Source: Moraxella nasovis (GTDB taxonomy: Bacteria > Pseudomonadota > Gammaproteobacteria > Pseudomonadales > Moraxellaceae). Taken from it: a DNA stretch of 32,000 bases. The stretch lies in the NCBI RefSeq assembly GCF_022701215.1, contig NZ_CP089976.1:1980001-2012000 (forward strand). The letters run 5' to 3'. Made by a program: the position numbers and the translations under genes. Within the stretch, counting starts at the first letter, position 1. Each line of letters starts with the position of its first letter. The notes beneath the pieces were generated by a model, which did not search any database, was not told the origin of the DNA, and saw only the letters and a list, made by a program, of their open reading frames with translations. Of the stretch, positions 1,337 to 30,358 are shown piece by piece.

Positions 1337-2249
1337 TCCTTTTCGACGTCTTTGCAAGTCTTTTGGGGCAGGGCATGCTGTGAGTGAGATGATGACCTCA
1401 GATGCGACATTATTTGCTAATCATAAGACGCTTTATCGTGCCAATTTTGAGGGAGAAATTGCTCCAATTTCAGCTCAAATTGTCGGCTCAGAGCCAGATA
1501 AATTAGCAGAATCTGCTCGTTATCAAGTCGCCAATGGTGCTAAGATTATCGATATTAATATGGGCTGCCCTGCTAAAAAAGTATGTCGCAAGCTTGCAGG
1601 CTCGGCATTATTGCAGGATGTGGATTTGGTTAAGCGGCTGCTAGAGGCGGTGGTCGGTGCGGTGGATGTGCCAGTTACGCTAAAGACTCGGCTTGGCTTT
1701 GAAAATGGTAAAGAAAATATTTTAACTGTCGCAAAGATTGCCGAAAATATCGGTGTTAAGGCACTCACAATTCATGGGCGTACCAGAGAAGATAAGTATT
1801 TAGGGGAGGCTCGTTATGATCTTATTGCTCAAGTTAAGCAAAATGCCACAATCCCAATCATCGCTAACGGCGATATTGACAGCCCACAAAAAGCAAAGGC
1901 TGTCTTTGACGCCACAGGGGTGGATGCGGTGATGATTGGTCGCTCAGCACAGGGTAAGCCGTGGATTTTTCGTAATATCGCCCATTATTTAAATACAGGC
2001 GATTTATTGCCAGACCCTGATATCAATGAGCTTCGTGCTATTGTACTAACTCATTTAGAAGAGCTGTACCGATTTTATGGGGAATATTCTGGCTGTCGTA
2101 TTGCTCGCAAACATATCGCTTGGTATACGTCAGGTATAGCTAACTCAAATGCCTTTCGTCAGGCGATGTATGCCAAAGAAAGCACAGCAGGGCAATTTAA
2201 GGTGGTAGAAGCATTCTTAAAAGAGGCGTATTTTGAGCAAGATAATTGA
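1242..2249 (+). CDS. dusB: tRNA-dihydrouridine synthase B
   Basis: It aligns end to end with E. coli DusB (LAPMAGVTDNPFRRLC, IDINMGCPAKKVCRKLAGSALL, ALTIHGRTRE, IANGDI, MIGRSAQGKPWIF). The ATG at 1242 matches the homolog N-terminus. Confidence 0.92.
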   Translation: MQPHTLLTTLQIGDEIINNRIWLAPMAGVTDNPFRRLCKSFGAGHAVSEMMTSDATLFANHKTLYRANFEGEIAPISAQIVGSEPDKLAESARYQVANGAKIIDINMGCPAKKVCRKLAGSALLQDVDLVKRLLEAVVGAVDVPVTLKTRLGFENGKENILTVAKIAENIGVKALTIHGRTREDKYLGEARYDLIAQVKQNATIPIIANGDIDSPQKAKAVFDATGVDAVMIGRSAQGKPWIFRNIAHYLNTGDLLPDPDINELRAIVLTHLEELYRFYGEYSGCRIARKHIAWYTSGIANSNAFRQAMYAKESTAGQFKVVEAFLKEAYFEQDN

Positions 2250-2265
2250 CGATTATACGCCAAAA

Positions 2266-2904
2266 TTACCCACCAATTAGACCATATCTCATCGCCAAAT
2301 GCGTAAGCTTAACATCGCTATCTACGCCTAATTTCTCAAAAATACGATAACGGTATGTATTGACTGTTTTGACACTAACGAACAGTTTATCAGCGATTTG
2401 TTGGGCACTTTGGCAGTTTACCACCATCATTGCCACTTGACGTTCTCTTTGTGATAGAGCATCAAAAGGGGATTGATTTGTCTCACCAAGCACCGCTGCT
2501 GCAAGCTCAGAGGCGACGTCATGGCTAAAGTAGCGATTCCCTGAGTGGAGTTTTTTAATCGCCAAAACCATCTCATCAAGTGGCGTTCCTTTTGTGATAT
2601 AGCCGTTCACGCCTGCCTTTAGTAGCATAGAGGGGTAGGGTTGGGCAGATAGGCTTGATACCGCAAGAATTTTAATGCTGTCATCTATTTGTTTGATTTT
2701 TTTAGTAGCATCTACGCCGTTCATGCTTGGCATATTGACATCTAATAAAACCACGTCAGGGCGGTGTGTACGCACCTTACTGACTGCTACATCGCCATCA
2801 TTTGCTTGAGCGACCACTTCGATATCATGGTCATCATCTAGCATTCGGACAATACCCATACGCACCAAATCATGATCATCTGCCACCAAAACTTTAATCG
2901 TCAT
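2266..2904 (-). CDS. gacA: two-component response regulator, NarL/FixJ family, GacA/UvrY-like
   Basis: It has a receiver domain (VLVADDHDLVR...DVVLLDVNMP) and a LuxR-type HTH (LSQRERQV...KTVNTYRYRIFEKLGV..DVKLTHLAMRYGL). It is collinear with UvrY/GacA. Confidence 0.85.
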   Translation of the reverse strand: MTIKVLVADDHDLVRMGIVRMLDDDHDIEVVAQANDGDVAVSKVRTHRPDVVLLDVNMPSMNGVDATKKIKQIDDSIKILAVSSLSAQPYPSMLLKAGVNGYITKGTPLDEMVLAIKKLHSGNRYFSHDVASELAAAVLGETNQSPFDALSQRERQVAMMVVNCQSAQQIADKLFVSVKTVNTYRYRIFEKLGVDSDVKLTHLAMRYGLIGG

Positions 2905-3112
2905 ACCATTCCTTTTGTCTTAATTGCATTTGATTTTATATGCTACTGGGTGATTTTGCAAATAAATTTAGCAAAAAGTAATACAGTGGCAAGATTGGGG
3001 TCACAACCGCACTACACTTGGCATCTTTTTGTGATTTTTTGTATTAGGATTTGGTGCTTGTTGGTGATTTATGTTAAACTTAATAAATTAATCTAACTAA
3101 TAAGGGTGACGC

Positions 3113-4237
3113 ATGAGATCGAATCTAAAAAAATATACGATACAATTAACCATGCTAATGACAGTGGGTGCAGCTTATCAGAATGCTCAAGCTTTCATTG
3201 TGGATAATAGCCACCAAAAGACAGTAACTTTATCACGATCTCAATTTAGCCCATCTCAGTCTAGCTCTACCTATGCTGTGACAGCTACTCCTATTACTGA
3301 AATTAATCAAGTCATTAAAGCTGAACCAACTCAAACGATTACAAGGCACGCCCCTAAAGTAGTTCAGACGATAACAAAGCCCACCTATACACCTGTAACT
3401 ACAACCCCTGTCACTGCACAAGCAAGCTCTCAGTTTAGCAGTAGCTATGCCCAAAATGATAGCTTTGAGAACTTTCCTATAACAACAGAATCATCTTCTG
3501 TGGCAGTCGTTGACCTACAAACTGGCAAGCTGATATACGGTAAAAACATCGATCATCAGCGTTCAATCGCTTCGGTGTCTAAAGTAATGACGGCTATGGT
3601 GATTTTAGATTCTGGTCTTGATATGCGTGAAGAGATTACTTTGATTGCGTCAGACTTAGTTGGGGCAAAAAAAGCAAGTACCAAACTAAAAGCAGGCGAT
3701 AGAATGAGTCGTTCTGAGCTGACATTATTAATGCTTATGAAATCTGAAAATCCTGCTGCCAAGGCTTTAGCACGCACCTACACAGGCGGTTATGATGCCT
3801 TTATTAGGGCTATGAATCAAAAAGCATACAGTCTAGGTATGTATCAAACAAGCTTTGCTGACTCATCTGGGTTAAATCCGAATAATAAGTCATCTGCCAG
3901 CGACTTGGTGAAGATGATGACAGCAGTAAGCAGTCAGCCGCGTTATCAGACAATTCGCAACTTCTCAACTGCACCAAGCTATGATTTTTATATTGCAAAT
4001 GACATCTTAGGCGATCGTGTTCTTAAGTCAAATAACACAAGTCGCCTTGTGCGTGCAGGTGCTTATCCTATCGGCGTGTCAAAGACAGGTTACATTCGTG
4101 AGGCGGGCTATTGCGTCGTCATGGAAACGCACGTTAATAACCGTCCTGCCATTGTTGTACTGCTTGGGGCAAAAGCTTCTAACAGTCGCTGGAATGATGC
4201 CGAGAACATTTTAACTGAGCTTGCCTATCGTAATTGA
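3113..4237 (+). CDS. pbpG: D-alanyl-D-alanine endopeptidase/carboxypeptidase (S11, PBP7/PbpG-like) with a long Thr/Gln/Ser-rich N-terminal linker
   Basis: It has a signal peptide, the SxxK motif (SVSK in SIASVSKVMTAMVILD) and KTG (VSKTGYI). About 110 low-complexity residues precede the catalytic domain. Confidence 0.82.
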   Translation: MRSNLKKYTIQLTMLMTVGAAYQNAQAFIVDNSHQKTVTLSRSQFSPSQSSSTYAVTATPITEINQVIKAEPTQTITRHAPKVVQTITKPTYTPVTTTPVTAQASSQFSSSYAQNDSFENFPITTESSSVAVVDLQTGKLIYGKNIDHQRSIASVSKVMTAMVILDSGLDMREEITLIASDLVGAKKASTKLKAGDRMSRSELTLLMLMKSENPAAKALARTYTGGYDAFIRAMNQKAYSLGMYQTSFADSSGLNPNNKSSASDLVKMMTAVSSQPRYQTIRNFSTAPSYDFYIANDILGDRVLKSNNTSRLVRAGAYPIGVSKTGYIREAGYCVVMETHVNNRPAIVVLLGAKASNSRWNDAENILTELAYRN

Positions 4238-9569: not shown

Positions 9570-10007
9570 ATGTTTCAATTACATCCAACACTTGCTAAAG
9601 ATACGTTTTTGGTAGGTGATTTTCCGTTATCTACTGTGCGTTTGATGAACGACTGCCAGTTTCCTTGGCTAATTTTGGTGCCACGTGTATCAGGCGTTAA
9701 AGAAATTTATGAGCTGTCGCACGTTGATCAAGTGCAGTTTTTGCGTGAATCAAGCTGGGTATCTAGTCAGATGGCGAAGATTTTTGGTGCAGATAAGATG
9801 AATGTTGCTGCACTTGGCAATCAAGTGTCTCAGCTGCATTTTCATCACATCGTCCGCTATCAAAACGACGCTAAATGGCCAAATCCTGTATGGGGCTCGC
9901 CTGCTATTCCCTATACCGCAGAAGTATTACAGCATATGCAACAGACACTGATGATAACCTTACGTGGTCACCACGAAATGCCTTTTGATTGGAAGATGAG
10001 TGTTTAG
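9570..10007 (+). CDS. HIT (histidine triad) family protein
   Basis: It has the histidine triad QLHFHHIVRY and the length typical of the family. An AAGAGA SD lies upstream. Confidence 0.82.
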   Translation: MFQLHPTLAKDTFLVGDFPLSTVRLMNDCQFPWLILVPRVSGVKEIYELSHVDQVQFLRESSWVSSQMAKIFGADKMNVAALGNQVSQLHFHHIVRYQNDAKWPNPVWGSPAIPYTAEVLQHMQQTLMITLRGHHEMPFDWKMSV

Positions 10008-10174
10008 AGATTAAGGCAGGATTATAGTTGGAAGCTGTTGAGATTTATATCATCAAGATTTGCGTCAATCTGCCCTACTAAATAGGTGGTAATTTCTGTT
10101 TCTTGTGGGGCAACTTGCACATTATCCGATGATAGCCAAGTGTTAATCCATGGTATTGGGTTAGATTTAGTAGG

Positions 10175-10489
10175 ATGTTCTATGGTAGTAAGTGGGAACT
10201 AAATCCCACAACTGCTTTTTATGATTGGCTGTATATCAATGCACTAAACCAAAACAAACAGTACCATCATGAGCTGTTAAGCTACCAAGCATTTACTGAC
10301 ATTGAATTCAACCCTGAAAAATCCATTAACTGCCAAGCCTATTCTGTGGCGATGTTTGTTGCCTTAGCAAAGAATGATATGCTCGGTGTATTAAAAGATA
10401 AAGAAGCATTTTTAGGTTTGTATCAAAAATACAAGATAGATAACACAACCAAATACCATAAAGAATTAAAACAGACAAGCCTACTATAA
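10175..10489 (+). CDS. hypothetical protein, possibly the 3' fragment of a longer gene
   Basis: The 104-codon ORF has plausible composition ([32 protein letters not shown]) but no SD. It starts abruptly at the island edge. I cannot assign a family. Confidence 0.4.
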
Positions 10490-10493
10490 ACCA

Positions 10494-10522
10494 AATAAAC
10501 CAAGCATATCACTTGGTTTATT
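10494..10522. terminator. bidirectional stem-loop between convergent genes
   Basis: AATAAACCAAG (10494-10504) pairs with CTTGGTTTATT (10512-10522) in an 11-bp stem flanked by A/T runs. Confidence 0.6.
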
Positions 10523-10880
10523 TTAATGTATTAAGGGTAGGTAGTCTAAACGGTGGGTGATAATCTAAATCTACAAGGACGATATAATCATCATAGCGTT
10601 GGTAATGTAACACATATTTACTGGTACAATCACCATACTCACCTACATACTCAGGTATGCCGATGTGGTAATGCCATAGATGATGTTGTTGTGCAAATCT
10701 GACATCATCAAGCCAAGTATATTTATGTCTAGGTACATTGTCTGATGACTTATTTCGTCCTATCAAACCTACCAATCCATACGCTTCAATATGCTTAACA
10801 AAAGTAGCAATCTTGGTTAGGTCATCATCACTTAACTTATCTAAGATATTTAAAAAGTGATTGGTATAGCTTACTTTCAT
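10518..10880 (-). CDS. putative type II toxin (RelE/ParE-superfamily-like, family unassigned)
   Basis: The ATG at 10880 overlaps the antitoxin stop (ATGA). The product is 120 aa with a C-terminal KYVLHYQRYDDYIVLVDLDYH strand pattern and a LWHYHIG motif. Its position lies downstream of an RHH antitoxin. Confidence 0.5.
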   Translation of the reverse strand: MKVSYTNHFLNILDKLSDDDLTKIATFVKHIEAYGLVGLIGRNKSSDNVPRHKYTWLDDVRFAQQHHLWHYHIGIPEYVGEYGDCTSKYVLHYQRYDDYIVLVDLDYHPPFRLPTLNTLK

Positions 10881-11107
10881 CGTGAACGTACCCAAGCAAC
10901 AAATTCTGTATTAGAATTAAACTTTGGTGCTTCTACAATACCACTGTTGATAGAAGCAAGAATACGTTCTTTATTAAAAGGGAAATCTTCCATATCACGC
11001 AACAACACATACTCTGCATATTCTTGTATGCTTAGGTCATGTGCTTTGGCTTGATGTTCAAAAGCACCTTGTAATTCATCAGGGATACTTACCATAAACT
11101 GTAACAT
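10877..11107 (-). CDS. ribbon-helix-helix (CopG/MetJ-like) antitoxin
   Basis: A strong AAGGAG SD precedes the start. The N-terminal MVSIPDELQGAFEHQAKAHDLSIQEYAEYVL is a typical RHH. A 4-nt ATGA overlap couples it to the downstream toxin. Confidence 0.65.
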   Translation of the reverse strand: MLQFMVSIPDELQGAFEHQAKAHDLSIQEYAEYVLLRDMEDFPFNKERILASINSGIVEAPKFNSNTEFVAWVRSR

Positions 11108-11128
11108 ATCAGCTCCTTAATTATTATC

Positions 11129-11160
11129 TTAGTATAACCCAAATTTAGTATAACCCAAAT
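11129..11160. promoter_or_regulatory. perfect 2 x 16-bp direct repeat (TTAGTATAACCCAAAT); likely TA operator overlapping the promoter
   Basis: The two copies are 11129-11144 and 11145-11160, lying 22-53 nt upstream of the antitoxin ATG. On the minus strand each copy contains TATACT. Confidence 0.55.
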
Positions 11161-11554
11161 CAAAACCAAGTAATAATAACTAATTATTATATTAAATATA
11201 AAACCAATAGTATAAGGTTATAAAAACCACATGAGATAAAAGAATAAAAGATATTAAAAATAAACACTTATTATATTATTTAATATTTAACCGTAACACA
11301 TAAACCATAATAACACTTCACTCATTCGCTATCGCTCATGGCTGGTTTGACGCAAGCTAACGGAATGTAAGGTGGTGTAAGTTGTGTGATGATGATATAG
11401 TAAATTTATATAATATATGATAATACAGGGGGTATTTGATAGATTAGGTCATCTAGATGGGTAGTAGGGTGTGAAAAAACAGCTCGTAGTATAGATTACT
11501 TAAAATACATTTGTCAATGCTATTTTTGTATTAATGTTATTATGCTATTGTAAC

Positions 11555-11590
11555 AAAGACATGATTGCTGTAATCATGTCTTTTTTATTG
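11555..11590 (+). terminator. intrinsic-terminator-like hairpin immediately upstream of the giant ORF
   Basis: AAAGACATGATT (11555-11566) pairs with AATCATGTCTTT (11572-11583) in a 12-bp stem, followed by TTTTATT. There is no upstream plus-strand gene for it to terminate. Confidence 0.55.
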
Positions 11591-11619
11591 TCTAAACAAA
11601 ATATGCTGTAACCCTTAGG

Positions 11620-14600
11620 GTGTACGGAGCAGGTATTGCAAATACGGTGAATACAGTACAAGATGGCTTGGTTGATGCTATTAGAACAGAGTATGAAAAC
11701 ATCAGTAAGCTTGTTCGTAAGAATGACTACACACAAGCAACTGAAAGAGCCTTAAAGCTACAAGAGCAGTTAAGAGTACTATTAGCAGACCCTAATTTTA
11801 ATCTACCTAATGCTGACCAGCTACTATCAAAACAAACGTGGCTTGATGCACAACCTTCTACAGGCTGGTATGCTAACCCTAAAAATAAATATAGAGTATT
11901 TAACCTAGAGCAACAGCTTAGAGCTAATACGTCATGGGTGTTAAAAGAAATTTTTGATACAGCACGTATGTCTTATATGGGTGAGATGATACAGACTCAA
12001 CACGATAATACAGCATTAGCAGAAAGAGCTACTAATATCTATATACGTGTCTTTGATGAAAAAGTAAAACAAGTAATTGAGCAAAATAAACAACAAGCCA
12101 ACACACCACAGCAAGCTGATGCTATAAACTTAAGCATAGAGCAATACCAACAAATCCAAGAAGAGCTTAAAGCGATATTCCCAAGCATTAAAACCCCGTT
12201 TATTGGTGAAAATGCTTTAGATTGGACAGATAATGGGTATCACCCTGTTAAGAGTGTAGAAACCTTACAAGAAGACCTAAGCAGTGAGCCACTAACTAGA
12301 GATAGCAATGGCAATATAAATTATCATCAGCTATCAGCAAGTATGCGTAAGATGGTGTTTAAGGGTTTAGCAACAACGTCATTCCAAACCCAAAGCGTAG
12401 ATGCTTATGTCACAGCAATCACAAGCTCTGGTGGTGGACACCCTAATAACCACATATCTATGAATAACCACGATAGTAACAGCGGTGGTATTCATTTTGT
12501 TACAGATATGGCTAAAGCCCAAAATAAAGCATTCTTTTATGGTTTAGCTACTTATCATGCTAATGAAGCTACCTTAGATGCCTTTTTGCGAACTATATTA
12601 GGTGCATTAAACACTTATCAAGGTAAGAAACCACCTATAGCATTAGTTGGTTCTTCTACAGGAAATATAGATTCCTTACTTAATCTTGTGAAAACTACCA
12701 AACAACAAGAGCTAGCTAAACTAAAAGGCTTACTAGCTTTACAAAAAATTCAGCAATACGCTACAGAAGGGGGTGAGTACCTTGTTGCAGGTGAAGATAG
12801 AACCTTTGTGATAAAGCAGATTGAAGCTTTAGAAGAACGGTTTGAAGACTACGAAAAACAAGCCAAGCAGATTCACACAGCTTATAAGGCACTAGCTAAA
12901 AAGCAAAATAATGGTGAACAAACAAATAAAGCTGTGACTAAACCTAACTTAAAAGAAAGCTTAACTCTTAGTGAGAGAAATGGTAGTGTTATCAACATCT
13001 GGCACGGCTCTAATGAGAACGCTAATTTATCTAACTTGGCTTTAAGACCATTTACTGCTAAGAATGGTAGAAAATACCAATCTGTAGAACACTTCTACCA
13101 AAGCCATAAAACAGGTAAATTTGATGAAACCATCTATGGAAATGTGGGTTGGTTTAAAGCAGGAACTAAGATAAAAAAAGGGACAGCAAAGACAGAAAAT
13201 GACTTTAATATTAAGCTAATGAAAGCAGGTATTAAAATGTCATTTGAGCAAAACCCAAGAGCATTACGAGAACTATTAGCAACAGGTAATGCTACCTTAA
13301 CGCATACCCAAGAAACAGGTATGTGGAGAGAGATGTTCCCTAAACTTTTAATGGAAGTTAGAGATGAGTTAGGACAAGTAGAGCAACAAGAAAGTACTGA
13401 TAACCTAGTTAAAGAGACTAAAGCATATTTTGATAAATACTTAAAAGGTAAATCGTTCGATACCGTGATTGGTAAAGTTCATGTATTGGGAAGTAGCTGG
13501 CAGAAGAAGTTGAAGCATGGAATAAAAACAGACCACCTAAGAGCTAAGGCAATTCCGTTTATCCCTGATATTCTTACTAAAGGTGTTTATGAAGGTAAGC
13601 AGGATTTGGGGAAAATAAGAAATGATACTTACGTTGCTTTCCACTCTTTTACAAAAGAGTTAGACATCGATGACGAAAAAGTATTCGCAAGATTATTGGT
13701 AGGTGAAAGGGCAAATAATGAGTATAAATTTGTAGCTTATAGTATTTACCCTAAAAAAGAGAACTCCGATATTGGTGATTCTGGAGACTTAGCCAGAGCC
13801 GTATCGGAGTTCGAAGATAGTGTAGCAAACCAAGATGAAGATGTCAAACCAACCCTAACAGGTAAATCTCCTTACTTGGCTAAAGACCAAGCTAAATCTG
13901 ACATAGCTAATAAGTTTATTGGTTTTGGGGCAAAAGGTAGTTCTACTGATGTATATAGACAAGATTGGGGCAATAAAGCCAATACAGGGAGCTATACAAG
14001 TACAGATAAGGTATTTGTATCTATAAATGGTAAACGCCCTAACAGGATAGGTGTAGAAGCATATAAAGCAGAACTGGATTTAGCCATTCAAGCAGGTGCT
14101 GTACTCATTACTGATAAAGCGTATGATAGAAATAGACCCTTTAATGTAGGGGAAAGGGAAGTAGCTGAGTACTTAAATCAAAAAGGGTATGTAGAAACTT
14201 CAGATGGTATTTGGGGTAGGGCATCTAATGAATCTAAAGACGTGAAATACCAAGCTAATAGCTTTGGTGAAAGACCAAACTTAAAAGATGTAGCTGATAT
14301 TGATGTCGTTGAGATAAACGCTAAAGAGCTTGGCTTTAAGCAAACTAAACAATTAGCTGATGAAATTTTAAGACAGCTACAACAAACAGACGCAATATAC
14401 AACCATGATACTGGCTGGAATTTACAGGTAGGTAAAAAAGACCGTAAAAAGATGGGAGATAATAATAATCTATCCCACGCTACTAGCCAAGCGGTACAAG
14501 GTATAAAAGAGCTTGTAAGAAATGCTGTTGTTGCTGAAACTCACCAAGACGTTAAGCATGGTAATGAAAGAGTTACGGCAATACATAGAATGTATGTTCC

Positions 14601-17600
14601 TGCAGACATCAATGGGCAATTACACCGTGTTAAATTGACTATTAAAGATTACAGCTTAAATGATGGTACAAAAAGAAAAAATCTCCATGCTATTGAAGCG
14701 ATAGAGATTGAAAATGCCCTGCTGGGAACTCTGCCACCCGATGCTACCAATGGGGTAATTCAAGGGGTAGCTCAACCAACCACAGGGCATAAACTAAGTA
14801 TAGTTAATCTTTTAAAAGGAGTCAAGCACGATGGAGATGATGGGGTGTTTTTTGATACAGCACCTACAAGACGTCTTGGTTTTAAAGATTTAGAAACAGA
14901 CAAATTACAAGCACAGAATGTAATAGCATCTGACACAGACATTAGAGTAAATAACACACAAGTGCTAAAGCGTCTGTTAATATCTAAATTTGATAAAGAA
15001 GATACCACACATCTGTATGCTCGTCAGCATTTACGAAACGTACTTGCTCTAGTTCAACCAATCAACCCTACGGTTGAAATTAAAGTAACAGCAGATGGGG
15101 ATTATCAAGGTGTGTATGATATATCAGATAATACCATTACGATTAGTGAAACGTACGCAAATACAGCAAGCTATAAAAACTTAGTGGGTGTGTTAACTCA
15201 TGAGTTAGGACACGCCACAACCATGCAACGCTTAAGAGATATTCGTGCAGGTAAAGTGACTTCACCTAAAGTACTACAAGCTTTAAACCATCTTATCAAT
15301 AAACGAAACACCATCTTAACTGAACTAAATAAAGCAGGTGTAGCTTTAAGTGATAAACAAGCTTATATCCTAGAAGCAGGGAAGTATAGCGATGAAAATC
15401 AGTATGGGATAGAAGAGCTTATCAGTCATGTCTTAGGTAACGATGTAGAAGCTTTACGTTTATTAACTGAGTATGGGGGTAATAAGACAGACTTATCCAA
15501 AAATACCAAAGGGATTAAAGCCTTTATAAATGCAGTTAAAAACTTATTTACACCAAACTTGGATAATAAAAAAGCTCAAGGTAAAAAGCAGTTTGAAGCT
15601 CAGTATTCAGACTTTATGGGTGCATTAATAGAGCTTACCCAACCACTAGATGACATATCAGATAACACAGACCTTACACCAAATGGTTTAGATTTATTAG
15701 ATGAGTTAACAACTCAAGATGTCACAACCCAAGTGATTGCTAACCATAAACTAGCTGCTCATGCTTATTTTAATGAAGCAGATGAAGTTTACGCTCACTA
15801 TCAAGATGTGGCTCATAAATCCACGATTGAAGTGCTTAAACAACTTCCTAAAGGTAACATTAGTGAGACGCATAACGCTAAGCTAGATGGTTTAATAGAT
15901 ACACTACTTTCCAGCTTTTATAATAAACACCACAATGCTAGTGCCTTATTGGCTAACCAAGATAAACTAGATAAAGCGATAATAAGTGATGATAACCAAG
16001 TGCTTAGTCATGGCTTTAACTTAAGTGCAAAAGAACTGGCAAGTTATCAAGCAGTAAAAGCTGTGTTAGATAGCTTTGGGAATGCACAGCGTCATGAAGC
16101 CTATCAAGAGCTACGGCATATCTATGAAGAAATGCTAGATAACAAGGCAGGGTATCAGCAATTTATAAACTCTGATAACCCAACCAAAGATGATATTGAG
16201 CTGGCTAAAAAACAGTATGATTTTTTATTTCCTAAAAAAGAAACTGACCATACACCAGCACATAGATTGGTTGCACTTAGTTTAACCAGTGAGCAGATGT
16301 ACAATCTGTTAAACCAAAAACGTCAAATATTAAAAAATAAGTCTGATAATCAAAGCTGGTTTGATAAAGCTATGGGGTTATTTAAAACACTATTAGATGT
16401 GCTACTACAAAAAGTGAAAGGGGATAAGTCTAAGCCTATTAATGCACAGATTGATTTTTTGGTAAATAAACTAACAAAATTAGATGAGCATTATAGATTA
16501 CAAAGTCTAAGACGCTCTGATAAGCTATGGGAGTACAGAAAGTTTATTACTGTACCTGCTAATAAAGCGGTGAAAGGGGCACTTGATGTGGGTAAATCAG
16601 TTACTGTGGCTGTATTTCCTAAAACACAGACTTATTTTGATGCTGTGGTAAAAACACCATCACAGATTGCACGAGACATATCAAATGCCATCAATGCGTC
16701 AGATTCGTCTGATAAACCACTAGGCACACTAAGAGAGCTGATGAATGAATATGGTACAACAACCATCATGCAAAAGCTTATGACTCGTATGCTAGCAACA
16801 ACTCAAAGCATAGGACAAGAACGAGAGTTAACACGAGCTTCTACCAAGAGTCAGTTACTGGCATTTTTTAAGGATAAGCCTACAGCAAACCAAGCACAAG
16901 CAATAACTAAGGGGCTATATGAGACAGACGCAAGTAGCTTACTTAATTATCATGATATGGATACCACGCTTGGGTTAATCGTAAATCATAGCTTACGAGA
17001 TGGGCGTATCACAGCGATACGTAATCAGATTACACATAACTTTCAGCTAAACTTAGATGAGATAAATGGGATTATTAAAGCAACAATGGTCGCTGCTCGT
17101 AAAATGTATGATGGGGCAACTTTAGCAGATTATTTCTCAAATCCTGAGTTAATTGCCTTTACTTATAATAAACCAAATAATAAAGAATTAATTGGTTTAA
17201 TTGATGAGCTAACCACGCTTACTGCGTTACGTTATTCACACGATGGTGTATATAAAAAAGCAGATATGAGTGAGCTTATCGCATTAATCCAAAATGATGA
17301 AGATGCCATTCGTCAAGTTTTAAAGCACCATCATACGCATATGACTGCATTTAAAACACAAGAATTTGCATCAAATCCTTTTAGTTTTACCAAAGGCTAT
17401 ACACCTGAGCTATATGATGAGCTAAGAGCGGTAAAAGCTGTAACAGGTGAAGAGCTTCAAGAATACTTAAATAAAGGATGGGCGTTAGAAACACCTGATG
17501 GGATAAAACAAGATGACTTTGATGATACACATACACGCTATTTGGTAACAACAGCAGATGCTGGTAAACCCCATTATCAATCAGGTGTGTTAGAGTTATC

Positions 17601-19152
17601 TGATACCCATGCTAAAGGTACGGTGGTTTATGAAGATTCTATACAAGTTGCTCAGATAGTTAAAAAACAAATCAAAGAGCGAGCTTTACATAATAAAGAA
17701 GTAAGCTGGCAATCTTTTAGTCCTTTTGATGAAGATACAAATCCAAAGGGTAGATTTATTGCATCTTATAATCCAGATGGTTCAGTTGCAAATCTACATT
17801 ATGAGATGGAATCTAAAACAAGAGATAGACTGCTAAACCGTAATTTAAATTTTAGTGACATTATGGGTTCTATGGTAGGTAACACACAAGCCAAACAACC
17901 AATGAGAGAACATCAAAGAGATATTGTGCGTGCATTACATAAAGACTATACAGATGCAATGAAATCACCAGATGCTAATATGTTGGATTTTTTGGTATTA
18001 ACACCTGATTCTTCTGACCCACAAATTGCAGAGCATTACAGATTACTACCTTATAGTTTTAAAGATGAAGCCAATAAGTTATTTGGATATAACCGTCCTA
18101 TTTATATTCGTAAAGATATTTATAATATGGTACTAGGCTATAGACGAGTAAGTTTAGCTAATGTGTGGGATAAACCAGAAAACGAGCTTAATGAGTTTGA
18201 AAAACGATTTAAAAATCTGGTTACATCTAAATGGGGTGATAAAGCACGTGGTAGAGTGTTATGGACAGGTAAACATTGGGGTGCTTTAGTTAAACAAGTA
18301 CAAAAATCTTGGGTAGTACGTAATCCATCTACATTAAAAGGTAATGTGATTTCTAATGCACTACTGTTAAGCTTAAAAGGTGTAAATCCAAAAGAAGTGA
18401 TAACAGGTCATGTACGAGTATGGAAACATGGTAAAGAGTATCGTGACCTTGTCACTAAGGTAGCTCGTATTAAGGTACAACTAGAAGCAGGTACAGCTAA
18501 TCAAGACCATCTACTAAGACAGCTAACAAACCTAACAGCAAGCATTAATTCACATTATTTACATAAGTTTATGCAAGCTGGTTTGATGAGTACGATTGTA
18601 GAAGACATTTCAGATGATAAAGGTCAATACACGTCAGCTTTAACGCGTAAGTTAGATAAATTTTATAATAATTTACCTAAGCCTTTAAAAGCTACGTTAG
18701 ATTTTGTGTTTATTACTGAAGATTCTAAGTTGTATAAAGCTCTTTATGATGCAACGCAATTTAGTGACTTTGCTGCTAAAGTGTTATTAATGGAGCAATT
18801 AATGAAAGAAGGACATAGTTTTAATTATGCTTATAGTGAAGCTCAAGATGCCTTTATTGCTTTTGATGTGCCTACCAGTAAGTATATGGATTATGCAAAT
18901 CGTATTGGTTTATTTATGTTTACTAAGTGGGCAATACGCTTTCAACGAGTGCTTGAAAAGCAATTTAAGAAAACACCAGCATCTGTCATAATGCAACACC
19001 TGTTAATAGAGAAGTTTACTGATGAAGCAGGTATTGCTAATCCTTGGGTAGGATTTGATATTATCTCTGGGAATACTGGTTTAGAAGATGGTGCATTTGG
19101 TTTATTAGATGCCTATTTACATACGCCTGTGATAGACCATATCGTTGATTAG
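11620..19152 (+). CDS. giant multidomain (polyvalent-type) protein, 2510 codons: N-terminal unknown region, NADAR domain, nuclease-like modules, HEXXH zincin, ~1200-aa helical C-terminal region
   Basis: It is an uninterrupted 7.5-kb frame. The NADAR alignment to YbiA covers residues ~456-584. HELGH lies at residues 1194-1198 (nt 15199-15213). The start is uncertain: GTG with no SD, and the first ATG in frame is codon 117. Confidence 0.85.
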   Translation: MYGAGIANTVNTVQDGLVDAIRTEYENISKLVRKNDYTQATERALKLQEQLRVLLADPNFNLPNADQLLSKQTWLDAQPSTGWYANPKNKYRVFNLEQQLRANTSWVLKEIFDTARMSYMGEMIQTQHDNTALAERATNIYIRVFDEKVKQVIEQNKQQANTPQQADAINLSIEQYQQIQEELKAIFPSIKTPFIGENALDWTDNGYHPVKSVETLQEDLSSEPLTRDSNGNINYHQLSASMRKMVFKGLATTSFQTQSVDAYVTAITSSGGGHPNNHISMNNHDSNSGGIHFVTDMAKAQNKAFFYGLATYHANEATLDAFLRTILGALNTYQGKKPPIALVGSSTGNIDSLLNLVKTTKQQELAKLKGLLALQKIQQYATEGGEYLVAGEDRTFVIKQIEALEERFEDYEKQAKQIHTAYKALAKKQNNGEQTNKAVTKPNLKESLTLSERNGSVINIWHGSNENANLSNLALRPFTAKNGRKYQSVEHFYQSHKTGKFDETIYGNVGWFKAGTKIKKGTAKTENDFNIKLMKAGIKMSFEQNPRALRELLATGNATLTHTQETGMWREMFPKLLMEVRDELGQVEQQESTDNLVKETKAYFDKYLKGKSFDTVIGKVHVLGSSWQKKLKHGIKTDHLRAKAIPFIPDILTKGVYEGKQDLGKIRNDTYVAFHSFTKELDIDDEKVFARLLVGERANNEYKFVAYSIYPKKENSDIGDSGDLARAVSEFEDSVANQDEDVKPTLTGKSPYLAKDQAKSDIANKFIGFGAKGSSTDVYRQDWGNKANTGSYTSTDKVFVSINGKRPNRIGVEAYKAELDLAIQAGAVLITDKAYDRNRPFNVGEREVAEYLNQKGYVETSDGIWGRASNESKDVKYQANSFGERPNLKDVADIDVVEINAKELGFKQTKQLADEILRQLQQTDAIYNHDTGWNLQVGKKDRKKMGDNNNLSHATSQAVQGIKELVRNAVVAETHQDVKHGNERVTAIHRMYVPADINGQLHRVKLTIKDYSLNDGTKRKNLHAIEAIEIENALLGTLPPDATNGVIQGVAQPTTGHKLSIVNLLKGVKHDGDDGVFFDTAPTRRLGFKDLETDKLQAQNVIASDTDIRVNNTQVLKRLLISKFDKEDTTHLYARQHLRNVLALVQPINPTVEIKVTADGDYQGVYDISDNTITISETYANTASYKNLVGVLTHELGHATTMQRLRDIRAGKVTSPKVLQALNHLINKRNTILTELNKAGVALSDKQAYILEAGKYSDENQYGIEELISHVLGNDVEALRLLTEYGGNKTDLSKNTKGIKAFINAVKNLFTPNLDNKKAQGKKQFEAQYSDFMGALIELTQPLDDISDNTDLTPNGLDLLDELTTQDVTTQVIANHKLAAHAYFNEADEVYAHYQDVAHKSTIEVLKQLPKGNISETHNAKLDGLIDTLLSSFYNKHHNASALLANQDKLDKAIISDDNQVLSHGFNLSAKELASYQAVKAVLDSFGNAQRHEAYQELRHIYEEMLDNKAGYQQFINSDNPTKDDIELAKKQYDFLFPKKETDHTPAHRLVALSLTSEQMYNLLNQKRQILKNKSDNQSWFDKAMGLFKTLLDVLLQKVKGDKSKPINAQIDFLVNKLTKLDEHYRLQSLRRSDKLWEYRKFITVPANKAVKGALDVGKSVTVAVFPKTQTYFDAVVKTPSQIARDISNAINASDSSDKPLGTLRELMNEYGTTTIMQKLMTRMLATTQSIGQERELTRASTKSQLLAFFKDKPTANQAQAITKGLYETDASSLLNYHDMDTTLGLIVNHSLRDGRITAIRNQITHNFQLNLDEINGIIKATMVAARKMYDGATLADYFSNPELIAFTYNKPNNKELIGLIDELTTLTALRYSHDGVYKKADMSELIALIQNDEDAIRQVLKHHHTHMTAFKTQEFASNPFSFTKGYTPELYDELRAVKAVTGEELQEYLNKGWALETPDGIKQDDFDDTHTRYLVTTADAGKPHYQSGVLELSDTHAKGTVVYEDSIQVAQIVKKQIKERALHNKEVSWQSFSPFDEDTNPKGRFIASYNPDGSVANLHYEMESKTRDRLLNRNLNFSDIMGSMVGNTQAKQPMREHQRDIVRALHKDYTDAMKSPDANMLDFLVLTPDSSDPQIAEHYRLLPYSFKDEANKLFGYNRPIYIRKDIYNMVLGYRRVSLANVWDKPENELNEFEKRFKNLVTSKWGDKARGRVLWTGKHWGALVKQVQKSWVVRNPSTLKGNVISNALLLSLKGVNPKEVITGHVRVWKHGKEYRDLVTKVARIKVQLEAGTANQDHLLRQLTNLTASINSHYLHKFMQAGLMSTIVEDISDDKGQYTSALTRKLDKFYNNLPKPLKATLDFVFITEDSKLYKALYDATQFSDFAAKVLLMEQLMKEGHSFNYAYSEAQDAFIAFDVPTSKYMDYANRIGLFMFTKWAIRFQRVLEKQFKKTPASVIMQHLLIEKFTDEAGIANPWVGFDIISGNTGLEDGAFGLLDAYLHTPVIDHIVD

Positions 19153-19180
19153 GGAAAAACCATAATAAAATAAATTAAAT

Positions 19181-19210
19181 AAACCCACTTAATTGGTGGG
19201 TTTATTTATT
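19181..19210. terminator. bidirectional terminator between the giant ORF and the convergent small ORF
   Basis: AAACCCAC (19181-19188) pairs with GTGGGTTT (19196-19203), with A-rich sequence upstream and T-rich sequence downstream. Confidence 0.65.
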
Positions 19211-19231
19211 ATATGGTTTACAAATTATGGG

Positions 19232-19567
19232 TTAGTTAGCACTAAAAACTTTATCTAAGTTTACCCCATGAACTACTAACCATGCTTGAGCAGGGTAGCT
19301 ATTGACTGTTAAACGTCCTACTTCTACTTGGTGGAATTCCAGCTCATTTTCTAAACAGTAGTGACGTAAACTATGCCATGAGTAAGATTGTCCTGTAATA
19401 TTACTAACTTCAGAAGTAGATGCAGAAGGTACTTTAAACTTAAGGGGTTCAGCTGGTTTATCTGATTCATCAGCTAGTACTTCGTTAGTTAGATAATCTA
19501 TCATAATTTGAATCGCATTTCGTACTTCATCTTTTGAATAAATGTGGTTTAGCGTGGTCATTGACAT
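19232..19567 (-). CDS. hypothetical protein co-transcribed with the integrase (possible DNA-binding/recombination directionality factor)
   Basis: An AAGGAG SD precedes the start, which lies 28 nt downstream of the integrase stop. The 111-aa product has an acidic linker. No recognisable motif is present. Confidence 0.55.
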   Translation of the reverse strand: MSMTTLNHIYSKDEVRNAIQIMIDYLTNEVLADESDKPAEPLKFKVPSASTSEVSNITGQSYSWHSLRHYCLENELEFHQVEVGRLTVNSYPAQAWLVVHGVNLDKVFSAN

Positions 19568-28085: not shown

Positions 28086-28616
28086 ATGAATCTAACTGCC
28101 AACACCTACCTAGATGTCCGTAATCCCACCCAGCCCACAGGCGAGATGATATTGACCTGTGCCGATATTGCCAATGAAAGCACATTATCTAATGACTATG
28201 TCGCCAATATTTGGGGCTATACAGGGGGTAATATCAGCCCAGAATTGATGTGGCAAAATGCCCCCAAAGACACCAAAAGTTTTGTCATCACGCTATTTGA
28301 CCCTGACGCACCCACAGGCTCTGGCTTTTGGCATTGGAATGTGTTTAATATTCCTGCTGATTGGACGGCATTACCCAAAAATAAATCCAATGATTTTGGT
28401 GATGGTATTATTGAGCTTAAAAATGACGCAGGACTAACTGGCTTTATTGGGGCATTTCCACCCAAAGGCGATAAACCACACCGCTATATTTTTACGCTAT
28501 ACGCCCTAAATGAAAAACTGGATTTAAACAATAGCATTAGCCCTGCGGTATTGGGATTTAATTTAAATGGTAAAGTTTTGGCGACAGCTAAATTGACGGC
28601 TTATTATCATTGGTAA
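28086..28616 (+). CDS. YbhB/YbcL-family PEBP (Raf kinase inhibitor-like) protein
   Basis: It has the DPDAPTGSGFWHWNVFNIP and PPKGDKPHRYIFTLYAL signatures of bacterial PEBP. An AAGGA SD precedes the start. Confidence 0.88.
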   Translation: MNLTANTYLDVRNPTQPTGEMILTCADIANESTLSNDYVANIWGYTGGNISPELMWQNAPKDTKSFVITLFDPDAPTGSGFWHWNVFNIPADWTALPKNKSNDFGDGIIELKNDAGLTGFIGAFPPKGDKPHRYIFTLYALNEKLDLNNSISPAVLGFNLNGKVLATAKLTAYYHW

Positions 28617-28626
28617 TTATTGAACA

Positions 28627-29004
28627 ATGAAAGAAAATAGCGATTTTTTAGACTTTTATAGAAATATCACATTTTCTGATAACTATGATGTTAATTCATT
28701 TATTGGTAAATGGATTGATGATGCGATTTGGTCGGATGAAGAGTATATCAAATTAGAAAAATCGCTATTGACTATTCAAAAAGCATATCCCTATCCAACC
28801 GATATTCCAAGAGAAATTATCATATCACTTTATAGAATTATTGAGTTGATGATGATACCAAATTGGTTAGATTTTGATGTTGAAAAATCCAATCTGAATG
28901 ATGAGAGTGATATCTTTGATAGATTTGAGAGATTAAAATTGGTCATTTCTTATGTTTTGTCTGGCAATGATATTCAAGAAATAGGATTTGGTTATAATCC
29001 ATAA
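28627..29004 (+). CDS. hypothetical all-alpha acidic protein (immunity-protein-like; speculative)
   Basis: The 125-codon ORF is very AT-rich and starts 10 nt after the PEBP stop. It has no signal peptide and no motif I can assign. Confidence 0.55.
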   Translation: MKENSDFLDFYRNITFSDNYDVNSFIGKWIDDAIWSDEEYIKLEKSLLTIQKAYPYPTDIPREIIISLYRIIELMMIPNWLDFDVEKSNLNDESDIFDRFERLKLVISYVLSGNDIQEIGFGYNP

Positions 29005-29715: not shown

Positions 29716-30358
29716 ATGAAAAACTTATTTTTATCATCTTCTTTGTTTGATGTTGCAAAATTTTTGCCGAGTTTTTTAAGTGGTATTGACAAAAATAAGC
29801 AATTTAAAAGCGTGGCTTTTATTGATGTTGCCAGTCAAATAGAAGAGTATAAAGCCAATATTGACCGTGCCAAATGTGCTTTTGATGAGCTTGGTTTTTT
29901 GATTGAAATGATTGACTTTAACCAATCATCTGATGACATCAAAAAATCCATTGTTTATTGCGATATGGTTTATGTTGCTGGTGGTAATACGCCTTATTTA
30001 TTAGAGAAATTAAAAGCCAAAAATTTATTAGAGCAATTAAAAGCCAAAAAGATTGATGTTTTTTTTAATTGAATGGATTGGACAAGGCAAACCCTATATC
30101 GGTGAGAGTGCAGGCAGTGCCATTTTGGCTCAGGATATTAAATATATTTTACCACTAGAAAATGAAGTAGAGCGATTTGATGATTTTGTTGGATTGGGTG
30201 TGATAGATTTTTATCCTTTGGTGCATTTTGGTGATAAACCATTTGATGAAGCTACCAAAACGATTTTTGATAATTATTCATCAAAAGATAAAATGATAGC
30301 ATTAAACAATCGGCAAGCATTGATAATCTATGACAATAAAATGTTAATTCCATCTTAA
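29716..30358 (+). pseudogene. S51 peptidase (dipeptidase E-like) gene split by a +1 frameshift in a T8 tract
   Basis: Two adjacent ORFs (29716-30072 and 30053-30358) together give the family pattern (VAFIDVAS, VYVAGGNT, YIGESAGS). Removing one T from T8 (30059-30066) fuses them as ...KKIDVFLIEWIGQGKPYIGESAGS. Confidence 0.7.

Follow-up and report, generated by a model that had tools for sequence, protein, structure and literature searches.

Guanine bases in phage DNA are ADP-ribosylated by DarT1, which blocks replication, and this modification is reversed by NADAR domains, both in DarG1 and in the AdfN proteins of phages (PMC11543638, PMC11825919). All of the NADARs tested (DarG1, YbiA, a sigma70-linked type, T4 gp30.3, Bas32, and Bas60) remove guanine-linked ADP-ribose from DNA, and the phage NADARs rescue phages from DarTG1 (PMC11543638, PMC11125620, PMC11825919). 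The virion RNA polymerase (vRNAP) of phage N4 is transferred along with the DNA and transcribes the early genes immediately on invasion (PMC5512222). A zincin metallopeptidase (MPTase) is found in all N4-like vRNAPs (Iyer et al. 2017, PMC5512222). The accessory domains reported in vRNAP fusions are ART, lysozyme/transglycosylase, and PBECR, with the vRNAP-ART fusion of Roseovarius Plymouth podovirus 1 and the Moraxella prophage protein DR90_1081 as examples of such polyvalent proteins; the word NADAR is absent from that paper (PMC5512222). Here we describe a 32,000-nucleotide stretch of Moraxella nasovis DNA (contig NZ_CP089976.1, positions 1,980,001 to 2,012,000 of the forward strand; the whole stretch is referred to as the window) in which a NADAR domain is encoded within the remnant of an N4-like vRNAP gene. 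The AdfN phage NADARs, recently shown to neutralize DarTG1, are standalone genes, whereas here the NADAR is built into a vRNAP-type protein.

The initial annotation of the window had placed a NADAR domain at positions 12985 to 13371, and this call was borne out by profile, homolog, and fold evidence. The plus strand of the segment encodes 129 stop-free residues, SVINIWHGSNENANLSNLALRPF...KLLMEVRDEL, which are amino acids (aa) 456 to 584 of a 2,510-codon open reading frame (ORF) at 11620 to 19152. The Pfam NADAR profile (PF08719/DUF1768) matched this segment with an E value of 6.6e-8, and the PHROG profile phrog_1017 matched aa 466 to 563 (E value, 2.4e-9). E. coli YbiA (2b3w) was the sole significant phmmer match among all PDB sequences (E value, 1.5e-4), and the three YbiA alignments quoted in the initial annotation were reproduced with HMMER and MAFFT. 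In a collection of 5.8 billion proteins, the nearest proteins to the domain were of phage type, were 50% identical to it (E value, 1e-25), and carried a precomputed PF08719 annotation; one of the nearest relatives is a fusion protein of Bacillus phage AgentSmith that combines NADAR and DUF4326. An AlphaFold2 model made from an alignment with these homologs (predicted local distance difference test [pLDDT] score, 77.9) has a predicted YbiA-like alpha+beta fold. It matched YbiA (E value, 1.8e-4; template modeling [TM] score, 0.66) and the ADP-ribose complex of a Phytophthora NADAR, 8bau (E value, 2.4e-3; TM score, 0.59), both at a probability of 1.00, and the remaining PDB matches all had E values above 3. 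Against BFVD, the model matched dozens of viral NADAR proteins, and the top matches were segments of giant crAss-like phage proteins. This is a genuine NADAR domain, with a match far beyond chance. It belongs to a phage-borne subfamily that is mostly a cargo module within giant "polyvalent" virion proteins; the carrier is at least 2,000 aa long in 32 of the 61 full-length homologs and shorter than 300 aa in 7.

The active-site residues of PnNADAR fall into a Glu/Lys pair (E43 and K50), a C-terminal motif (E125, D130, and W133), and residues that contact the diphosphate (R79, W89, and R93) (PMC11543638). Mutagenesis of E. coli DarG1 demonstrated that E88 and K95 are needed for activity, with K95 being essential (PMC11543638). 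In the window domain, E490 and K497, within SVEHFYQSHK, align with identical spacing to E43/K50 of PnNADAR and likewise to E36/K43 of T4 AdfN, and they correspond to E88/K95 of E. coli C7. All 11 residues that are 100% conserved in the 61 full-length homologs (S471, N472, R476, E490, Q494, K497, N545, L552, H562, W569, and F573) are kept. There are only four deviations at positions conserved at 80% or more, and these are mild: F492 (consensus A), T498 (S), K520 (G), and E565 (D). The third catalytic motif reads L-T-H-T-Q-E-T-G-M-W, compared with LYEASRHDAIW in PnNADAR and LVEHTENDAYW in YbiA. When residues are counted back from the invariant Trp, Thr occupies the E125 position, or the position is deleted; the invariant His562 follows, and the acid, E565, is displaced by one residue. 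The Glu of the YbiA subfamily at this position (the "LVEH" Glu of YbiA) is not present. T4 gp30.3 (AdfN) aligns as LKHS at the His-motif site, and "L-x-H-[ST]" is common to T4 AdfN and the window domain. Schuller et al. (2023) noted that "phage NADARs" carry His in place of the Glu of the C-terminal motif (PMC11543638). The His-type motif is a subfamily signature and not damage. The diphosphate-contacting Arg and Trp of PnNADAR align with Thr and Phe here, and the closest homolog, P0001, has Thr at the first position and retains Trp at the second. The initial annotation had made conservation of the catalytic residues a check on its call: the Glu/Lys pair is intact, but the third position is Thr-His and not the YbiA-type Glu.

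The initial annotation had also described the carrier as a fusion of NADAR with nuclease-like and protease modules. The "nuclease-like" N-terminal part is instead the C-terminal third of a T7/N4-type RNA polymerase, running from the Lys/Tyr-Gly of motif B to the "HD" of motif C, and no nuclease family was detected in the ORF by profile searches. A peptidase domain is present where a protease was proposed, but it is the zincin MPTase of all N4-like vRNAPs. The PHROG "virion RNA polymerase" profile, phrog_2206, is colinear with the ORF, matching aa 1 to 427 with profile positions 1580 to 1954 (E value, 8.5e-20) and aa 1060 to 2468 with positions 2004 to 3365 (E value, 2e-198). At profile positions 1954 to 2004, the ORF has an insertion of approximately 630 residues (aa 428 to 1060) that holds, in order, NADAR, an LPD3 domain, a conserved module that we refer to as domain X, and a second LPD3 domain. 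A tblastn search matched 481 phage records, and those listed were N4-like (Schitoviridae where the taxonomy was checked), with Acinetobacter phage Presley as the best match. In the Presley vRNAP, residues 1768 to 2094 align with aa 121 to 442, including NFHDANAGN opposite NNHDSNSGG at motif C, and residues 2208 to 3475 align with aa 1190 to 2495 (E value, 2e-90), including HEIMH opposite HELGH. The HExxH MPTase and the gp50-type C-terminal domain expected of an N4-like vRNAP are both present. The T7-like RNA polymerase (RNAP) module is incomplete and is represented solely by the end of motif B (K-x7-YG) and motif C (HD). A phmmer search of the PDB with aa 1 to 455 did not reach the N4 mini-vRNAP, and the link is made through Presley and the PHROG profile. 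We identify the giant protein as a polyvalent-class N4-like vRNAP that has lost its 5' part.

The break lies within polymerase motif B. An in-frame TAA (11593 to 11595) is located directly upstream of the ORF, and the codons from the TAA to GTG specify T-K-Y-A-V-T-L-R, giving a frame that reads TKYAVTLRVYGAG, where full-length homologs have "..RKxxKAILIPFGYGAG" at the break point. The terminator-like hairpin marks the junction with unrelated AT-rich DNA, and no promoter-like site was found after it. The first 116 codons of the ORF contain no ATG, and a usable Shine-Dalgarno sequence is lacking. Nothing in the window corresponds to motif A, to the T/DxxGR motif, or to the N-terminal domain as a whole, nor to positions 1 to 1579 of phrog_2206 or to approximately 2,150 residues of the homolog P0031. 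By colinear alignment with P0031, the ORF is the 3' 7.5 kb of a vRNAP gene, missing approximately 2,150 N-terminal residues. A public gene call, P0030 (2,501 aa), begins at the GTG of codon 10 (11647) and is otherwise identical to the ORF. P0030 was considered, as a "94% identical" diverged ortholog, for a test of the ratio of nonsynonymous to synonymous substitution rates (dN/dS) but it proved to be the identical sequence with another start and was therefore rejected. The features of the locus are compiled in Table 1.

Table 1. Features of the truncated vRNAP gene and its surroundings, with the alignment of the ORF to P0031
Feature	Window position	Strand	Residues (aa)	Evidence or remark
2,510-codon ORF, 5'-truncated N4-like vRNAP (polyvalent protein)	11620..19152	+		profile, tblastn, pairwise alignment
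RNA polymerase module remnant	11596..12939	+		begins in motif B TKYAVTLRVYGAG (K-x7-YG)
Motif C "NNHDSNSGG"	12463-12489	+	282-290	alignment to Presley vRNAP
NADAR domain	12985..13371	+	456-584	profile, phmmer, homolog, fold, and alignment evidence
Key NADAR residues	13087-13089 (E490), 13108-13110 (K497)	+	S471/N472, R476, E490, Q494, K497, N545	
Key NADAR residues, C-terminal part	13303-13305 (T561-H562)	+	T561-H562, Q564, E565, W569, F573	
LPD3 copy 1	13396..13722	+	593-701	PF18798, E value 2.8e-14
Domain X	13846..14229	+	743-870	conserved alpha/beta module
LPD3 copy 2	14338..14670	+	907-1017	E values 1e-30 and 9e-19
Zincin metallopeptidase (MPTase/SprT-like) core	15073..15228	+	1194-1198 (HELGH)	HELGH at 15199-15213
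C-terminal domain	15817..19152	+	~1400-2510	homologous to N4-like vRNAP encapsidation/ejection domain
Terminator-like hairpin	11555..11583	+		13-bp stem and T-run, 10-35 nt upstream of truncated ORF
Inverted repeat, terminator-like	19170..19214	.		just past ORF stop codon
3' fragment of DarT1-associated NADAR antitoxin (darG1) gene	10175..10489	+		PF22397, E value 1.3e-33
Toxin-antitoxin (TA)-like two-gene cassette	10518-11107	-		phrog_5954 and 76-aa ORF
111-aa ORF	19232-19567	-		matches solely last ~60 positions of phage transcriptional-regulator PHROG
Short tyrosine recombinase, 301 aa	19596..20501	-		right side of low-GC island
Polymerase remnant vs P0031 2153-2582			2-426	24% identity
NADAR vs P0031 2670-2802			456-588	71% identity
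LPD3 copy 2 and MPTase start vs P0031 2827-3138			882-1206	51% identity
C-terminal domain vs P0031 3742-4774			1401-2476	29% identity

The combination of a vRNAP with NADAR recurs elsewhere. With aa 1 to 1200 as the query, HMMER run exhaustively over 1.84 billion representative proteins gave 1,475 matches. P0031, a protein of 4,807 aa on a 16.8-kb contig (L085), carries the Pfam domains vRNAP_dom_2, NADAR, LPD3, and MuF_C and is colinear with the ORF; the genes beside it gave no assignment to a known phage. DNA identity to this contig is 75% over the NADAR domain (12985 to 13371) and 72% over the second LPD3 segment (14306 to 14841), with almost none over the rest of the gene. The high identity of the NADAR and LPD3 segments points to cassette exchange or to far stronger constraint on these modules. 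P0050 (5,126 aa), P0052, and P0070 are further vRNAPs with a NADAR of the same subfamily, and the vRNAP-type C-terminal domain was also present in at least 13 of 60 NADAR-bearing representatives, these 13 or more being distinct metagenomic giant proteins. Two metagenomic proteins of approximately 2,820 aa, P0103 and P0176, have NADAR at the N terminus, an HExxH motif, and the vRNAP C-terminal domain, with no detectable polymerase match. The vRNAP-type C-terminal domain may be a general virion-delivery module for effector cargo. A megablast search of 50,697 phage records with the ORF gave no match, and protein pattern scans of IMG/VR and of 185,579 GTDB species-representative genomes found no relative. 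Look-ups by exact sequence gave no record for the giant protein, P0030, HIT, PGK, or FBA.

Domain X is widespread in giant phage-type proteins and is also found as standalone proteins of 128 to 200 aa. It co-occurs with the NADAR subfamily in 18 of 60 proteins. Its invariant polar residues are K, D, SST, N, D, S, G, TD, R, N-GER, and W. The AlphaFold2 model of this domain had a pLDDT score of 89.7, and no match was found in Pfam, PHROG, or the PDB (best Foldseek E value, 0.59). Domain X may be an uncharacterized enzyme.

In N4, the polymerase accompanies the DNA into the host and initiates transcription at single-stranded promoter hairpins. The native place of NADAR in an N4-like vRNAP is after the polymerase module and before the zincin-peptidase/C-terminal delivery domain, and, by analogy with N4, the domain would be carried inside the capsid and delivered to the cell along with the DNA. 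There it would most likely hydrolyze the N-glycosidic bond that joins ADP-ribose to guanine in DNA, so that DarT1-type ADP-ribosylation would be erased from the incoming genome ahead of any phage gene expression. The predicted role of E490 and K497 is to bind the distal ribose and the diphosphate, and T561-H562...E565...W569 would stand in for the Glu...Asp...Trp motif found in YbiA and PnNADAR, in the manner of T4 AdfN. NADAR might or might not be freed from the polyprotein by the MPTase. An injected, polymerase-tethered eraser is plausible for the ancestral phage because full-length vRNAPs carry NADAR at the same position. We consider it probable that the ancestral NADAR was a packaged, vRNAP-borne eraser of guanine-ADP-ribosylated DNA and that the copy in the window is its stranded relic. 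If so, the target of such a prepackaged, polymerase-bound eraser would be DNA of the type attacked by DarT enzymes.

The initial annotation had proposed an injected or resident eraser of nucleic acid ADP-ribosylation. That NADARs erase DarT-type guanine ADP-ribosylation is experimentally established for phage NADARs (PMC11825919, PMC11125620). Injection applies to the protein class, in that N4-like vRNAP polyvalent proteins are packaged and injected (PMC5512222), but not to this locus, where the ORF is truncated, resides in a bacterial chromosome, and is devoid of start signals. The truncated vRNAP has no virion genes in its surroundings, and the stereotyped virion/late-gene neighborhood is missing; the protein can be neither packaged nor injected from the locus. 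The architecture provides a testable model of "injected counter-defense" against DNA ADP-ribosylation, with no working system at this locus.

Several observations weigh against the interpretation of a DNA eraser stranded as a relic. The enzymatic activity of this NADAR subfamily is putative. PF08719 gives 33.4 bits when the domain is scored by itself and 26.6 bits when the full protein is scored, so that the Pfam check suggested in the initial annotation gave a significant E value but a score below the curated gathering cutoff of 35.1 bits; strict hmmscan thresholds would miss the domain. In the alignments, the E125-equivalent Glu is missing, with Thr/His instead, and Thr/Phe replace the diphosphate-contacting Arg/Trp. 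There is no DarG1-like N-terminal DNA-binding extension on the NADAR. The unbroken ORF is unexpected for an old pseudogene, and no close nonidentical homolog was found for a dN/dS test. In addition, Iyer et al. (2022) argued that phage NADARs mainly target soluble ADP-ribose derivatives (PMC9503650). According to that proposal, the domain would degrade soluble ADP-ribose-derived molecules, which could be immune signals or toxins such as cyclic ADP-ribose variants and ADP-ribose phosphates, instead of repairing ADP-ribosylated DNA. The closest standalone homolog, P0001, is consistent with this possibility because its NADAR is fused to DUF4326, a predicted ADP-ribose-phosphate phosphatase, and so are the co-occurrence with domain X, the SLOG-like "GGAxGxD" segments judged by eye to lie near NADAR in P0029, P0052, and P0141, and the lack of the DarG1-type extension. 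However, every NADAR assayed acts on guanine-ADP-ribosylated DNA, including YbiA and the minimal T4 AdfN of 152 aa (PMC11125620, PMC11825919), and no NADAR has been shown to cleave a defense signal. We regard a soluble target as rather unlikely. That the domain might be a YbiA-type housekeeping N-glycosidase of riboflavin-pathway intermediates is extremely improbable. YbiA is its best PDB sequence match and TIGR02464 matched weakly (E value, 2.4e-5), but that score is 24.6 bits against a cutoff of 73.7 bits, the YbiA-defining Glu is missing, and the domain forms part of a phage virion protein and belongs to a subfamily essentially confined to giant phage-type proteins.

The frame of 2,510 codons is unbroken in DNA of 36% GC, and such a long intact frame indicates either that the truncation is recent or that the fragment is still under selection. 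The unbroken frame leaves room for a domesticated gene. The truncated gene would then be a functional host gene, serving as a resident NADAR that replaces the destroyed darG1 or as a polymerase-dead decoy that poisons superinfecting N4-like phages. Such a role would agree with the retention of all NADAR invariant residues in the intact frame, with the public annotation of P0030 as a coding sequence, with the location beside the darG1 fragment in an apparent defense/mobile-element hotspot, and with the natural existence of RNAP-less proteins (P0103 and P0176) that combine NADAR, MPTase, and the vRNAP C-terminal domain. It is difficult to reconcile with the lack of an ATG for 116 codons and of a usable Shine-Dalgarno sequence, or with a terminator hairpin upstream and no promoter after it. 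Furthermore, the break lies within a catalytic motif and not at a domain boundary, the neighboring darG1 is itself a fragment, the integrase and the regulator-like ORF also look truncated, the window contains no DarT, and the 185,579 species-representative genomes hold no relative. A functional host gene thus appears quite unlikely. The more specific proposal of a domesticated antiphage decoy, dead as a polymerase but keeping the capsid-targeting MPTase/C-terminal domain, with its NADAR also substituting for the destroyed neighbor DarG1, is very unlikely. Were it true, the decoy would be packaged in place of functional vRNAP, and the progeny virions would be unable to start transcription. We favor a recent relic, most likely without current function, in which the NADAR residues are undamaged.

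The truncated vRNAP gene lies in an island of gene fragments, approximately 10 kb long and low in GC, in a bacterial (Moraxella-like) chromosome. The GC content is 0.33 to 0.37 over 10.0 to 20.5 kb, versus 0.40 to 0.47 outside. Both flanks consist of bacterial housekeeping genes. Genes for dus, a LuxR-type regulator, a DD-carboxypeptidase, a thiE-like protein, mfd, queH, and HIT make up the upstream flank, and an RlpA-like gene, pgk, fba, ruvA, a LysR regulator gene, and leuCDB make up the downstream flank. Mfd is 69 to 72% identical to proteins of Moraxella species. When mfd loci from Moraxella and Psychrobacter were compared in search of an empty site, synteny past mfd-HIT was not conserved at a protein identity of about 70%. 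No convincing att-like direct repeats bound the island, no tRNA is present, and an Rfam scan of 9900 to 11800 gave no match. PADLOC and NCBIfam gave no match for the giant protein or for the small ORFs of the island.

The darG1 fragment, 1.1 kb upstream of the ORF, covers the last 82 profile positions of PF22397 (130 to 211 of 212) and retains the D-x-E motif ("DIE"), but the half with the Glu/Lys pair is missing. DarT was not detected among the ORFs of the window, and the embedded NADAR has no PF22397 match; the DarTG1 arrangement, a PF22397-type NADAR beside DarT1, is not present. On the other side of the vRNAP remnant, the 111-aa ORF and the tyrosine recombinase both resemble fragments, in keeping with an island made up of decayed mobile-element genes. 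The recombinase appears to be without its N-terminal arm-binding part. The copy in the window is a record of how a lytic-phage gene was captured and decayed in a bacterial island, beside a decayed DarG1 gene.

Other observations concern the TA-like cassette and the flanks. An exact tandem 16-mer, TTAGTATAACCCAAAT, is present in two copies (11129 to 11160) just upstream of the start of the cassette, and a near-consensus sigma70 promoter lies on the minus strand (11517 to 11488). At the left end of the window, a LydA-type holin gene (PF16083; 444 to 800, plus strand) adjoins dus and may be a further phage remnant. A PEBP-family gene and an Imm41 immunity-protein gene (28086 to 29004, plus strand) are inserted between leuC and leuD. 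Between leuD and leuB, a Peptidase_S51 gene is split into overlapping plus-strand ORFs at 29716 to 30072 and 30053 to 30358 (profile positions 27 to 110 and 110 to 203), which is a frameshifted gene or a sequencing error.

The window domain resembles AdfN (T4 gp30.3, AdfN-Bas32, and AdfN-Bas60; PMC11825919, PMC11125620) in being a phage-borne, orphan, minimal NADAR without a DarG1-type extension, with the catalytic Glu/Lys at identical spacing and, in T4 AdfN, "L-x-H-[ST]" in place of the YbiA Glu. It is only 22% identical to T4 gp30.3, the AdfN proteins are small and standalone whereas this NADAR is part of a giant virion-class protein, and the T-H-x-Q-[DE]-x3-W motif is peculiar to its subfamily. 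From the carrier protein we infer a phage origin, and an AdfN-type counter-defense function is putative. DarG1 (PF22397; G. lovleyi and E. coli C7 structures; PMC11543638) shares the superfamily, the fold, and the Glu/Lys pair. Unlike DarG1, the window domain has no PF22397 match, adjacent DarT, basic N-terminal extension, or D171-x-E173 motif, and the darG1 fragment nearby clearly belongs to another NADAR subfamily. E. coli YbiA (2b3w) is the best solved-structure match, with an alignment that spans the whole domain, but identity is 23 to 28%, the loop before the last helix is shorter here, the "LVEH" Glu is missing, and the genomic contexts are unrelated.

The carrier is comparable to the N4-like vRNAP polyvalent proteins (PMC5512222) in its RNAP module, accessory effector domains, HExxH MPTase, C-terminal domain, and LPD3 domains and in having Moraxellaceae-phage relatives, with Presley as the best cultured match. 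It differs in lacking approximately 2,150 N-terminal residues and the virion-gene neighborhood. Giant "DUF1768 domain-containing" proteins of crAss-like phages (cr126_1 gp003, 2,402 aa; cr272_1, cr130_1, and cr131_1) have a NADAR of the same subfamily in different carrier proteins, from phages of another order, Crassvirales. To judge from their titles and the openings of their abstracts, the papers found that name both "virion RNA polymerase" and "NADAR" do not have a vRNAP-NADAR fusion as their topic. NADAR erasers, AdfN counter-defense by phages, and vRNAP polyvalent proteins are already known. Because NADAR is not among the vRNAP accessory domains of Iyer et al. (2017), the NADAR-in-vRNAP architecture is new relative to that list. 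It is recurrent in metagenomes, the window holds a decayed example of it, and with it NADAR joins the known accessory domains of the vRNAP polyvalent proteins.

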